From a bacterium (GTDB taxonomy: Archaea; Thermoplasmatota; E2; JACPAO01; JAHFTW01), in assembly GCA_040390065.1 (NCBI GenBank), contig JAZJZE010000005.1:245170-309169 (forward strand): DNA of 64,000 nt, in the 5' to 3' direction. The notes under the pieces are model-generated. The model was not told where the DNA came from. It saw only the letters and a list, made by a program, of their open reading frames with translations, and searched no databases. Positions 50,483 through 56,067 of the stretch are shown piece after piece. The number at the start of each line of letters is the position of its first letter. Position 1 is the stretch's first letter. The translations under genes were made by a program, and so were the position numbers.

Positions 50483-51601
50483 TCACGACGGGTGGTCCCG
50501 CCGCGCGGCGTCCCCGTAGATCTCCAGCAACTCCGCCGTGATGCGGTCCCAGTTGAACAAGTCGAGCCGGGCCGCACTCGCCTTCGACATCTTGCCGCGC
50601 AAGGCGACGTCGGCTGCGACCTTGCCGACCTCGCGCGCCCAATCCTTCGGGTCATGCCCGAGAAGCGGCCCTGCATCCCCGACGGCTTCGGGGATGCCGC
50701 CGACGTCGGAGCAGACGAGCGGTGCACCGGCGGCCATCGCTTCGAGCAGGCTGAACGGGAACGACTCGAACCGGGCAGGATGGACGTAGACATCAGCGGC
50801 CTTCAGCAGCCGCACCTTCTCCTCTTCGCTGACCCAACCCGGGAACTTGACGCGGTGCGCGATCCCCAAACGTTGAGCCCGCTTCTTCCAAGCCTCGAGC
50901 ATCGGGCCGCGACCGACGAGGACGAGGTCGAAGGGCTCGGGGACGTCACGCCAGGCATCGATCAAGACGTCGAATCCCTTGAGGGCCACGAGGCGGCCCA
51001 CGGCGACGGCAAACGGATGCGGCAGGCTGGTCGCAGGCCGGCCTTCGATGCGCTTGATCTCGTCGAGTTCGACGGCGTTGTAGTTGAGGCGCAGCGGTTC
51101 GGCAGGAAAGCCATGTTGCACGAGGTCGCGGCGCACACGATCGCTGACGCAAACGACGCGGCGAGCGGCGCGCAGGGTCCGCATGTACATGCGGTCGTTG
51201 ACTTTGCTCGCCAAGCCAAGGATCCCTTTCCCTTCGCCGTAGGTGTTGTGATACGTGATGACGCCCGGACATGAAATCTCCCGGAACGCCTTGTTCCAAC
51301 TCGGCGACCAGCGGAAGTGGAAGTCCACGACGTCCGGAGCCAAGGCGTTGACGTACGCGGCGACTCCTTTCGTGCGTACCGGCGGCGGGTTGTAGAAGCG
51401 CTGCAGGGGGAAGGAGGACGGCAGCCGATGGACCGTGACGGCGCCTTCCTTTTCGATGCCGGCGGCCGTGCCTTCGAGCTGGGCGGTGACGATGTGCACG
51501 TCGTGGCCTTGCGCGGCCAGCCGCTGCGTGATGCTGCGGATGCGTCGCTCGATGCCGCCAGCGAAAGGAAAGTAGAAGGGGTTGAGGTGGACGATTCTCA
51601 T
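50483..51601 (-). CDS. Glycosyltransferase family 4
   Basis: GGIE, GRL...KG, ESFPFSLLEAMAAG, SDVGG. Confidence 0.93.
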   Translation of the reverse strand: MRIVHLNPFYFPFAGGIERRIRSITQRLAAQGHDVHIVTAQLEGTAAGIEKEGAVTVHRLPSSFPLQRFYNPPPVRTKGVAAYVNALAPDVVDFHFRWSPSWNKAFREISCPGVITYHNTYGEGKGILGLASKVNDRMYMRTLRAARRVVCVSDRVRRDLVQHGFPAEPLRLNYNAVELDEIKRIEGRPATSLPHPFAVAVGRLVALKGFDVLIDAWRDVPEPFDLVLVGRGPMLEAWKKRAQRLGIAHRVKFPGWVSEEEKVRLLKAADVYVHPARFESFPFSLLEAMAAGAPLVCSDVGGIPEAVGDAGPLLGHDPKDWAREVGKVAADVALRGKMSKASAARLDLFNWDRITAELLEIYGDAARRDHPS

Positions 51602-51839
51602 GGCAACCCCCAAGCACTGTGTGGGGCCGGAGGCTTGGAAAGCCGCAGGCCCCACCCGTGTTGATCGACCTGACTGCAGGTCGCAGGGAAGTAGAAGGGG
51701 TTGAGGTGGACGATTCTCATGGCAACCCCCAAGCACTGTGTGGGGCCGGAGGCTTGGAAAGCCGCAGGCCCCACCCGTATTGATCGACCTGACTGCAGGT
51801 CGCAGGGAAGTAGAAGGGGTTGAGGTGGACGATGCGCAA
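51566..51839. repeat. 119-bp tandem unit x2 plus 36 bp: GT4 start codons 1-12 (x3) interleaved with an 83-bp hairpin element (x2)
   Basis: Start copies 51566-51601, 51685-51720, 51804-51839; elements 51602-51684 and 51721-51803 differ by one base. Confidence 0.92.
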
Positions 51840-54265: not shown

Positions 54266-54853
54266 ATGGAAGACTACGTCCACATCCTTGACTACTTGCC
54301 CCAAGGCCGCCCCGACTCGCCGCCCAGCCGGCGCGAGCCGACGCTGCTTGGCCTCGGCGAGCAGCAGTTCACGCTCTTCGAGCTCGTGCCCAAGTCGGGC
54401 GCGCAGTTCACCATCGGCGACCGCGCCTACGTCGGCAAGGACGTCGACCAGCGCACCCTGGTCCAGAAGATCCGGGGCCGCATCCAATACCACGAGTTGA
54501 CACCTGCCGCGCACGGCGAGCTGCCGTACGTCATCGAGGACGTCGTCAAGACGGACCCGGCGCGCTTCCTGAAGTTCTTCAACGACGCGCCATCGATCTC
54601 CGTGCGCTACCACGCCCTGGAACTCCTGCCTGGCATCGGCAAGAAATCCGTCGAGCACCTCGTCACCGAGCGCAAGAAGCCCTTCGAGTCGTTCGAGGAC
54701 CTCGAGGCGCGCGGCAAGGTCGCCCATCCGATGAAGGTCGTGATTGGCCGCATCCTGCACGAACTGCAGGACCCCACTGAAAAGTATCACATCTTCGTGC
54801 GCCCTCCCGCTCAGGAGAGGGAAGAGTGGCGTGGTCCCCGCAGGGGACCGTAG
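54266..54853 (+). CDS. DUF655 domain RNA-binding-like protein
   Basis: E.Y..ILDYLP.G, FFN.A..I..R.H.LELLPGIG, F.SFED; synteny. Confidence 0.93.
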   Translation: MEDYVHILDYLPQGRPDSPPSRREPTLLGLGEQQFTLFELVPKSGAQFTIGDRAYVGKDVDQRTLVQKIRGRIQYHELTPAAHGELPYVIEDVVKTDPARFLKFFNDAPSISVRYHALELLPGIGKKSVEHLVTERKKPFESFEDLEARGKVAHPMKVVIGRILHELQDPTEKYHIFVRPPAQEREEWRGPRRGP

Positions 54854-55036
54854 CGCCCTCGACCCCGATTCCTCGGGAGGGCGCATCGGGCTACGGCCCG
54901 CAAGGGCCGTAGCGCAGGTCAGCCCTCCTGCTCAGGAGAGGGAAGAATGGCGCGGGCCGCGGCGCGGCCCGTAGCGCGCCCTCTGCGCGAATTGTCGGCG
55001 GACGCATCGGGCTACGACCCGCAGGAGACCGTAACG
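54801..55036 (+). repeat. 121-bp degenerate tandem duplication of the DUF655 3' end plus hairpins (~60-bp sub-period)
   Basis: PPAQEREEWRGPRRGP* at 54801-54853 and 54922-54974; hairpin+CCGTA(G/A)CG with GTA at 54850, 54909, 54971, 55031. Confidence 0.88.
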
Positions 55037-55263
55037 CCCGTGGGATAAAGGCCGAGCCGGGGGTCCGGTCGGTGTGAGTGTTGAGCCTTGCCGCACTTGG
55101 GCAAGCGGCCCCCGGACTCGACCATCCCGCCAGTGGGCCTCACGGTATTTCACTCGTATGGGCCGATTGTTGCAACGTCCAGGCGCTCTATTTCACCCAT
55201 GTGGGCCAATCGTTTCGTGGCGGCGGGGGGCCGGTTGAAATCCCGGCAGGCGGTGGGCACGGC

Positions 55264-56067
55264 GTGGGCCAGCGGCTCGGCCAGCACTTCCTTCGCGACG
55301 ACCGCGTGCTGGAGGACATCGTCGCAGCAGCCCAACTCAAGCCGGGCCAGCGTATCCTCGAGATTGGGCCAGGCCCTGGCAACCTGACGGCCCGACTTGC
55401 TGCGGCGGCCGGATCAAGCGGCGAGGTCGTCGCCATCGAGGCCGACCGGGAACTCGCCACGGCCCTGGAAGGCAAGTGGCCCAACGTCCACGTCGTGGCG
55501 GGCGATGCCGTGCGCGAGGACCTTGCCGCGCTGGGCCGGTTCCACCGCATCGTCGCCAACTTGCCGTACCTCATCTCCGGACCGATCACGATTGCGTTTC
55601 TCGAGTTGCTGGCCAAGCCCGCCACGCGCTGGGACCTCGCCGTCCTCATGTATCAGCGGGAATTCGCCGAGCGCCTGCTTGCCCACCCGAGCTCGCACGA
55701 CTACGGCCGGCTGACGGTGCAGGCCGCGCGTTGGTGCCGCGTCACGCCAGTGCGGGACGTTGCGCCGGGTGCATTCAATCCGCCGCCGCGCGTCGACTCC
55801 ATGGTCGTCGCACTGCAGCCACACGCAACGCCGCCGTTTGCCGTCGACGACGAACGCGTCTGGCAAGCCGTGCTCGACGGCACGTTCCAGCGCCGCCGCA
55901 AGCAACTGCGCAACAGTCTGCCCGCCGCCGTCGGGGGAATCGGTATCCCGCAGGACCACACGCTTGCGACCCTCGACAATCTCGGTTGGACGACGCGTCG
56001 GCCGGAGAACCTGTCGCCGCGCGAATTCGCCGAACTGGGAAACGCCCTGGGACGTGCCGCGAGATGA
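55264..56067 (+). CDS. rsmA: 16S rRNA m6,2A dimethyltransferase
   Basis: LGQHFL, LEIGPGPG.LT, ANLPY.IS, Q.EFA.RL, F.PPP.VDS. Confidence 0.96.
   Translation: MGQRLGQHFLRDDRVLEDIVAAAQLKPGQRILEIGPGPGNLTARLAAAAGSSGEVVAIEADRELATALEGKWPNVHVVAGDAVREDLAALGRFHRIVANLPYLISGPITIAFLELLAKPATRWDLAVLMYQREFAERLLAHPSSHDYGRLTVQAARWCRVTPVRDVAPGAFNPPPRVDSMVVALQPHATPPFAVDDERVWQAVLDGTFQRRRKQLRNSLPAAVGGIGIPQDHTLATLDNLGWTTRRPENLSPREFAELGNALGRAAR

Follow-up and report, generated by a model that had tools for sequence, protein, structure and literature searches.

What appears to be the closest documented analogue of the gene end described here is the e14 prophage of Escherichia coli: icd runs into e14, a fragment named icdC lies at the far end, and excision changes several synonymous sites and two conservative residues of icd (PMC13626634). 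The gene end in question belongs to a DUF655 gene in a 64,000-nucleotide (nt) stretch of contig JAZJZE010000005.1 (the window, by which we mean this whole stretch), part of a metagenome-assembled genome (MAG; G000) of 2.68 Mb in 50 contigs, with 66.8% GC and 89% completeness, whose relatives are labelled Thermoplasmatota or Thermoplasmata MAG. Beyond the stop codon of this gene, an insert is followed by a second copy of its last 16 codons, which spells the same peptide differently. On our best reading, the DUF655 end is a scar left by stacked gene-end replacements, an instance of something that this lineage does habitually and that affects several genes. What it shares with e14 (and with phage 21) is that an insert would supply a new 3′ end, that the old end would survive beyond it and that the two ends differ mainly synonymously; e14, however, is a 15-kb prophage, whereas the DUF655 insert comprises ~70 non-coding bases and carries no integrase. 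The DUF655 insert also holds the tail in inverted copy, able to fold with the tail itself, and the arrangement recurs at several genes, each with its own tail.

Three other known systems resemble parts of this locus. Tandem inversion duplications formed by snap-back have a direct-inverted-direct order, turn around at a short quasi-palindrome and have their arms perfected. The DUF655 end shares this order and a junction at a short quasi-palindrome. Known examples are kilobase-scale, identical at origin and unstable intermediates, whereas the units here measure 100-240 nt, persist across species and have recoded copies. At DUF655, a nearly identical left block of 29 bases adjoins a right block of 19 that differs at 7, and sister loci fall into two allele classes. 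Archaeal attL/attR partial tRNA genes likewise have a duplicated 3′ part, as seen here at a tRNA-Arg gene, but the copies in this genome lie only ~96-128 nt apart with no element genes between them. Finally, repetitive extragenic palindromes and the mosaic elements built from them (REP/BIME), mobilised by REP-associated tyrosine transposases (RAYT), share GC-rich palindromes that adjoin a GTAG tetranucleotide in short arrays behind genes; the DUF655 end differs in having no dispersed family, no RAYT that we could find, and a palindrome built from the codons of the neighbouring gene. The literature that we covered, on tandem inversion and quasipalindromes, icd/e14, DUF655, archaeal miniature inverted-repeat transposable elements and tRNA integration, yielded no hairpin modules that duplicate gene ends, and it is the only basis for that statement.

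The C-terminal 16 residues of the DUF655 protein, before the stop, are PPAQEREEWRGPRRGP*. This tail is a genuine part of the protein: DUF655 orthologs of the genus and family carry RPPA(Q/K)E..(D/E)EWRGPRR, after which come GP, N, A, G, M or T. A first-pass annotation of the locus had pointed to 16 codons encoding the same peptide with 8 of them recoded, and the direct comparison bears this out: the two tail copies differ at 9 bases in 8 codons, all of the changes being synonymous, with no residue change. At random, nine substitutions would all be synonymous with P ~5e-6 and four would with P ~2.5e-3; four of the nine observed changes are two changes mirrored across the coding palindrome. The differences between the tail copies are non-neutral. 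They are also unevenly placed, since copy 2 is a mosaic in which 2 of the first 29 bases but 7 of the last 19 differ from copy 1, and a 17-nt block (GCTCAGGAGAGGGAAGA) is identical between the two. Tandem Repeats Finder reported a period of 121 with 1.8 copies and 78% matches (54801-55023), and our repeat search matched segments of 56 nt (84% identical) and of 27 nt (89%), each pair offset by 121 nt. As 121 = 3x40+1, copy 2 falls in the +1 frame. It ends an open reading frame (ORF; 54744..54974) whose frame differs from that of DUF655 and which starts inside DUF655. The present translation of copy 2 found no support, given the +1 frame, the start of the containing ORF within DUF655 and the indels in the corresponding copy of a relative (G007). 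The sequence CCGTAGCG begins at 54848, 54907 and 54969, and CCGTAACG at 55029, with spacings of 59, 62 and 60 nt. The earlier description of four GTAGCG-type units ~60 bp apart, the fourth degenerate, thus stands, CCGTA(G/A)CG being present four times at intervals of 59-62 nt. The coordinates are collected in Table 1.

Table 1 Features of the DUF655 gene end and codon changes at recoded gene ends of the same genome.
Feature	Location	Strand	Description	Basis
DUF655 gene	54266..54853	+	domain, residues 1-179; basic tail, residues 180-195	ORF list and Pfam
Tail copy 1 (a1)	54803..54853	+	16 codons and TAG; translated gene end	sequence, ORF list, repeat search
Long hairpin of unit 1	54797..54886	+	~90 nt; 5′ arm 54797-54839 (tail codons), loop GCA 54840-54842, 3′ arm 54843-54886	
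Central 7-bp stem, copy 1	54833..54849	+	GGTCCCC gca GGGGACC; perfect, in GPRRGP codons	
Perfect 10-bp hairpin (h1), GCAA loop	54890..54913	+	10/10 complementary; 3′ arm GGGCCGTAGC repeats the last ten bases of the gene, 5′ arm is the inverse	
Tail copy 2 (a2)	54922..54977	+	codons and TAG 54924-54974; same peptide, +1 frame, probably untranslated	
Central 7-bp stem, copy 2	54954..54970	+	GGGCCGC ggc GCGGCCC; perfect	
x2, decayed counterpart of the 3′ arm	54975..55007	+		sequence and alignment
h2, degenerate h1 copy, then GTAACG	55011..55035	+		repeat search
rsmA (KsgA)	55264..56067	+	GTG start probable from ortholog comparison	Pfam
Recoded gene end	C1:400638		recoded codons: 8 synonymous, 0 non-synonymous	own tail scan
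Recoded gene end	C3:89854		recoded codons: 10 synonymous, 1 non-synonymous	own tail scan
Recoded gene end	C5:87486		recoded codons: 7 synonymous, 1 non-synonymous	own tail scan
Recoded gene end	C9:218305		recoded codons: 5 synonymous, 1 non-synonymous	own tail scan
Recoded gene end	DUF655		recoded codons: 8 synonymous, 0 non-synonymous	direct comparison

Each unit consists of three pieces, namely a (the 16 codons and the stop), x (an inverted imperfect tail copy after the stop) and h (a short hairpin), so that the overall order is direct tail, inverted tail, short hairpin and direct tail. The structure is real and larger than first described: the whole tail-coding segment is one arm of a hairpin. 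In unit 1, the 3′ arm of the long hairpin is an imperfect inverted copy of the tail, stop codon included, and the base of the stem is complementary at 12 of 12 positions. Folding of 54795-54921 gave -90.9 kcal/mol as RNA (z -8.25) and z -7.0 as DNA, values that none of 200 shuffles reached in either case, while the inverted tail copy scored z 4.4 against shuffled cargo (0/500 shuffles). Unit 2 (54916-55046) folded no better than shuffled sequences (RNA z +0.38, DNA z 0.01). Its x piece nevertheless retains a trace of a tail. At its base (54996-55007), x2 reverse-complements ATG CGT CCG CCG, a further synonymous spelling of V-R-P-P, and by hand reading all three of its differences from the x1 imprint lie at third codon positions. 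Therefore, unit 2 at one time paired with another version of a coding tail.

We also verified the smaller stems. As the first-pass annotation had proposed, the GPRRGP codons form a stem in both copies with two compensatory pairs between them, and a perfect GCAA-loop stem stands between the copies. With the codon usage of this genome, a perfect 7-bp stem arises in 7.4% of synonymous GPRRGP recodings, and both copies would be perfect with a probability of ~0.005. However, the GPRRGP peptide alone forces 4-5 of the 7 stem pairs, and the stems are consequently less striking than the synonymous pattern. The centre of the palindrome reads GGN CCN CGN / NGN GGN CCN, where the two free stem positions per side are third codon positions. 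Thus, when a 3′ arm mirrors its own 5′ arm in this GP-RR-GP palindrome, compensatory pairs are automatically synonymous.

The same layout is found at DUF655 in an independent MAG of another species (G007), where unit 1 has the same two-domain fold (z -4.15) and unit 2 again has none (z +0.75). The first-pass annotation had named covariation as one way to judge the structure; of the 36 pairs shared by this genome and G007, 7 show compensatory change and 3 a one-sided change, and no pair is broken, a count that comes from the only two genomes carrying the module. Tail copy 2 of G007 has acquired indels and lost its frame, which indicates that displaced copies do decay. No comparable fold is seen in two single-copy relatives (G004, z -1.65; G012, z -0.73), and in G004 the central stem has only 5 of 7 pairs. 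Across the relatives, the last residues of the tail track the stem: GGT CCC CGC AGG GGA CCG yields GP, GGG CCC CGC AGG GCC yields A, and GGC CCC CGC AGG GGC yields G, the A or G replacement being paired with a silent change in the first Gly codon. None of the 5 tails ending in N or M folds at z -2.3 or lower, and 5 of the 9 palindromic tails do. At the DUF655 tail end of the relatives, the stem and not the peptide appears to lead.

A separate observation concerns relatives with a single tail. In three of them (L057, L058 and L060), the stop is followed by a significant inverted copy of the relative's own tail (z 4.2, 3.6 and 2.5), and the same holds for L025, from another genus (z 5.5). This suggests that they are modules without a surviving spare end.

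To place DUF655 among the other genes of this genome, we scanned the last 12 residues of ORFs rich in GC at the third codon position (GC3) for a recurrence of at least 10 identities within 450 nt downstream. The scan returned 13 loci, and reversed tails returned 0. DUF655 itself was missed owing to the composition filter and was added separately; two loci were dropped from the counts, C1:19103 (an ordinary shared tail of ribosomal stalk proteins) and C1:130412 (doubtful). The five recoded loci in Table 1 together hold 38 synonymous and 3 non-synonymous codon changes. An inverted tail copy stands at z 4.4-6.7 at 5 of the 12 loci tested (C1:400638, C3:89854, C9:218305, DUF655 and C1:41367), and a weaker one at C43:31889 (z 2.8) and C5:87486 (z 2.4). 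Folding of the proximal unit scores z -3.9 to -7.6 at these five strong loci, and that of the next stretch is near 0 at four of them but reaches z -6.5 at C1:400638. The periods at the sister loci (225, 198, 236, 119 and 121 nt) cover all three frames. Five further duplications are young (0-2 differences) and hold other cargo without an inverted tail copy; two of these contain a member of a three-hairpin repeat family (see below), and the duplications with such cargo may represent a different process. The 16-mer core of h1 (CGGCCCGCAAGGGCCG) occurs 4 times in the genome, always within short tandem duplications. One occurrence is at tRNA-Arg(TCG) (C1:163598-163871, minus strand, locus L222), where a second 3′ half with 22 nt of trailer lies ~96 nt downstream, and where the two 3′ copies are separated by an inverted piece resembling a T-arm (GGGAATCGGACCCC) and by the 16-mer hairpin that the DUF655 module also contains.

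The sister loci also bear on which copy is the older. Three species have a duplicated end at the C3:89854 gene, where the cargo is unrelated and the periods are 198, 136 and 138 nt (the orthologs with spare tails being L236 in G004 and L241 in G011), and the C1:400638 gene has orthologs with spare tails in G001 (L228) and G006 (L230), where the periods again differ and the cargo is again unrelated. The inverted copy of G001 follows the codon spelling of its own species (TTTTGCAATCTG vs CAGATTGCAAAA). At the C3:89854 gene, the distal copies of the three species show 3-4 differences in 30 bases, all of them in third positions or the stop codon, a level that agrees with the 13-16 of 60 third positions differing in the gene body; the proximal copies differ at 5-9 of 30. 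Serine is spelled TCG or TCT in the proximal and AGC in the distal copy in all three duplicated species. Against the working end of G003, the proximal copy of this genome agrees at 48 of 51 bases, and against that of the closer G004 at 37 of 51 (4 of 17 third positions); its distal copy matches G004 at 42 of 51 (12 of 17 third positions). At C3:89854, therefore, the distal copy behaves like a native, recently displaced end and the proximal copy like an import, as judged by these comparisons. The different V-R-P-P spelling at the base of x2 and the mosaic make-up of copy 2 point the same way at DUF655. We also looked for a foreign tract within the DUF655 body and rejected this candidate: over five blocks, third-position identity was ~65-75% to every relative, with no breakpoint and no foreign tract visible.

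We give about an even chance to the proposal that copy 2, within a two-unit stack of tails and hairpins, is the displaced former end of DUF655, pushed aside by a new unit, and is under no selection today. A direct-inverted-direct order that turns around exactly at a quasi-palindrome is the pattern that a snap-back template switch produces. In our model, the process would have started with such a fold-back switch at the gene end, in the course of DNA synthesis or recombination, or alternatively with the insertion of a folded single strand. By either route the tail would be copied backwards and then forwards, giving the direct-inverted-direct order, and a second switch back onto the resident tail would leave the near-identical left block. 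The gene would retain the proximal copy, with the distal copy as a spare. The synonymous-only difference would follow if each copy was a working gene end while diverging, in different lineages or at different times, and the two compensatory pairs if each 3′ arm mirrors its own 5′ arm. Our more far-reaching hypothesis is tentative, and on balance we consider it somewhat unlikely: in this soil lineage of Thermoplasmatota, an undescribed process or a tiny non-autonomous element would rewrite gene ends by direct-inverted-direct copying, leave the old end as a spare and move recoded ends between species, with the last residues (GP, A or G instead of N) dictated by the hairpin and DUF655 among the clearest targets in a protein gene.

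Several points weigh against replacement of the DUF655 end. The two copies hardly differ over their first 29 bases, where both have the QEREE codons specific to this genome; a simple foreign end could account for this left block only with an additional crossover or conversion. Unit 2 has x and h pieces of its own, which calls for two or more events, or else for a complete unit to have been duplicated. At DUF655 itself, where the tail is short and third positions are near saturation in the genus, the comparison gives no clear polarity: by hand count, the right part of copy 1 departs from the closest species, G004, at 4 of 28 bases and that of copy 2 at 5 of 28. The cargo has no relative in the genome or family, and mobility of the module is thus not supported, nor were a trans-acting enzyme and a donor sequence identified. 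The covariation count rests on two sequences, those of the two genomes with the DUF655 module, and a function of the hairpin in the transcript is possible. Finally, the tail scan selects for peptide identity, which inflates the synonymous share, although this bias cannot create copies with 8-10 recoded codons, and neutral ones almost never pass.

Among the rival explanations, a miniature non-autonomous integrative element, in which a site-specific recombinase would insert unit 1 (or its x and h cargo with one tail copy) by acting on an att-like tail core or a folded strand and which would carry its own replacement end, is in our view unlikely but the strongest competitor. Folded hairpins that mimic the target duplex recall CTX phage and integron attC sites. 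Here, direct repeats of a gene end sharing the 17-nt identical block flank a small insert, six tyrosine recombinases are encoded elsewhere in the genome, the 3′ half of tRNA-Arg is duplicated in the classical manner around the same 16-mer hairpin, and the sequence 3′ of DUF655 is variable within the genus. The 70-nt insert, however, consists of hairpins only and holds no gene, and the presumed att is at each locus the tail of that locus, a diversity that a single sequence-specific recombinase could not handle. The inverted copy also fits the tail spelling of each species, which suggests local templating and not a carried site. A distant second att copy was sought and rejected as a candidate: no tail copy lies before rsmA in G007, G012 or G010 (best scores 21-28), the 20 kb after DUF655 not having been searched for it. 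In the four stretches without rsmA after DUF655, the ORFs look like ordinary chromosomal genes from their listing alone. Less probable still is a purely local tandem-inversion duplication, in which one snap-back at GPRRGP was followed by change in place, mostly in the translated copy and helped by template-switch correction. The turn-around of the direct-inverted-direct order exactly at the central stem would fit, as would the perfected stem of each copy, compared with 5 of 7 pairs in G004, and quasi-palindrome template-switch mutation is an established mechanism (PMC7202029). Yet outside the coding parts the two units have come to differ by indels and by ~30-40%, and an untranslated copy 2 of that age should hold non-synonymous changes (P 5e-4 or lower, for at least 5 changes). 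Moreover, the proximal and distal copies at C3:89854 form two allele classes across species, which change in place does not predict.

The synonymous pattern might also mean that copy 2 is used now, through a +1 frameshift or hop at CCG-TAG, RNA removal of the 121-nt unit, or service as a template upon deletion of the palindrome, an explanation to which we give little credence. It would account for the strictly synonymous differences, for a +1 frame that is open from the first TAG to the second (ORF 54744..54974), and for the distal copies of another gene, which differ among three species only at third positions or the stop codon; a 121-nt deletion would also yield the same protein from either copy. 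However, CCG-TAG is not known to be a slippery site, no Logan contig skips the unit, and the sister periods of 225, 198, 236, 119 and 121 nt share no frame relation. A bulge-helix-bulge intron was rejected, since the arms of the central stem pair at 7 of 7 positions within each copy and at 5 of 7 between copies, so that no such motif can form. Consequently, the dual selection on peptide and structure proposed in the first-pass annotation holds in part: the structure is real and the differences are non-neutral, but present selection on the copy 2 peptide is unsupported, because that copy lies in the +1 frame in no credible gene, is frame-broken in G007, and has sister periods in all frames. The same annotation had classed the locus as a REP/BIME-like hairpin array; an array of extragenic palindromes of this kind, mobilised by a RAYT-type transposase, is in our view very improbable. 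GC-rich hairpins do adjoin GTAG at ~60-nt spacing, and the genome has other dispersed hairpin repeats, such as the three-hairpin family with 21 matches. On the genome-wide search, though, the hairpin with GTAGCG proved not to be dispersed: a perfect hairpin of at least 6 bp abuts 8 of 934 GTAGCG sites (0.86%), 3 of the 8 at DUF655, against a background of 0.77-1.08% for four control hexamers. The unit is single-copy, since a BLAST search of 54795-55050 against its own genome gave 1 full match and 39 others of at most 29 nt (E at least 0.09), and its cargo had no match in 31 further genomes of the family. The Y1/RAYT transposase domain (PF01797) had 0 matches in this 89%-complete genome and was matched in 6 of 14 control genomes. 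Coding sequence makes up the first of the hairpins; the GTAG that follows 3 of the stems at DUF655 is the repeated stop-codon context CCG TAG CG, and GTAGCG recurs because the end of the gene itself is repeated. Least credible of all is an assembly artefact that stacks two strain alleles. The 50-contig MAG does have several exact tandem repeats at contig ends, but a Logan contig reproduces the region with 0 differences, G007 has the same layout, and a repeat of 78% identity is not a de Bruijn loop; the chimera that the first-pass annotation had named as its possible undoing is thus not supported.

Two further classes were tried and rejected. A diversity-generating retroelement does not fit, as A stands at only 1 of the 9 differing sites of copy 2 and all changes are synonymous, nor does a CRISPR array, as the four ~25-nt units are mutually different and the supposed spacers are pairwise homologous. 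A cargo motif shared by several modules (GAGCGGAC) was not enriched in the genome, with 76 found against ~205 expected.

If replacement of the DUF655 end is correct, gene ends in these archaea are overwritten without loss of function, leaving a readable fossil of the previous end. Such scars would be a natural record of recombination or template-switch events and a possible route for short pieces of essential genes between species. DUF655 would show that protein C-termini can be shaped by a DNA or RNA hairpin and not the reverse, and annotators would be warned that duplicates differing only synonymously need not signal current selection.

The DUF655 gene lies in the order Pus10, L21e, Rpo4/RpoF, DUF655 and RsmA, so that Pfam bears out the rpl21e-rpo4-DUF655-rsmA cluster read from the sequence at first pass. 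The Logan contig mentioned above (16,316 nt, run X1, depth 14.8) covers 54300-55500; run X1 is possibly the source sample, and the contig, being k-mer-based, is independent of the assembler only. Two other runs, X2 and X3, held fragments of relatives only. The link between DUF655 and rsmA is often broken in the genus: of 9 genomes in which as much as 20 kb after DUF655 was examined, 5 have rsmA at a distance of 0.5-1.2 kb and 4 do not have it within reach; in G002, G007 and G012 it is not within 20 kb and lies on other contigs (loci L039-L047, L050 and L051 examined). The end of DUF655 is therefore a rearrangement hotspot in the genus.

The window and the genome hold other hairpin repeats. The three-hairpin family is dispersed, ~90 nt long, has 21 matches in the genome and ends in ATCGACCTG-N3-5-CAGGTCG (examples are C17:93505-93665, C1:381130/381338 and C5:78819). 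Its middle hairpin varies by compensatory changes, and near-identical duplications of neighbouring sequence often flank its copies. At 51566-51833 of the window lies a tandem repeat of 119 nt, with 2.3 copies at 98% identity, by which a minus-strand gene has its first ~11 codons (MRIVHLNPFYF) and its upstream region duplicated, and gene 5′ ends are thus duplicated too; each 119-nt copy holds a member of the family (GTGGGGCC..GGCCCCAC, then GATCGACCTG-ACTG-CAGGTCG).

Around the DUF655 module, the region 54600-55400 gave no Rfam match at the gathering score and one below it (19.3 bits, cutoff 35), outside the repeat. A scan for bacterial-type promoters and terminators, a model that does not cover archaeal signals, found 0 sites. 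Just 5′ of rsmA, at 55146-55214, a 26-nt AT-richer box occurs in 2 copies 43 nt apart (TATTTCACTCGTATGGGCCGATTGTT and TATTTCACCCATGTGGGCCAATCGTT). These boxes may be an archaeal promoter or binding site, and GATTTCAC-like boxes are also present in the equivalent spacer of G004.

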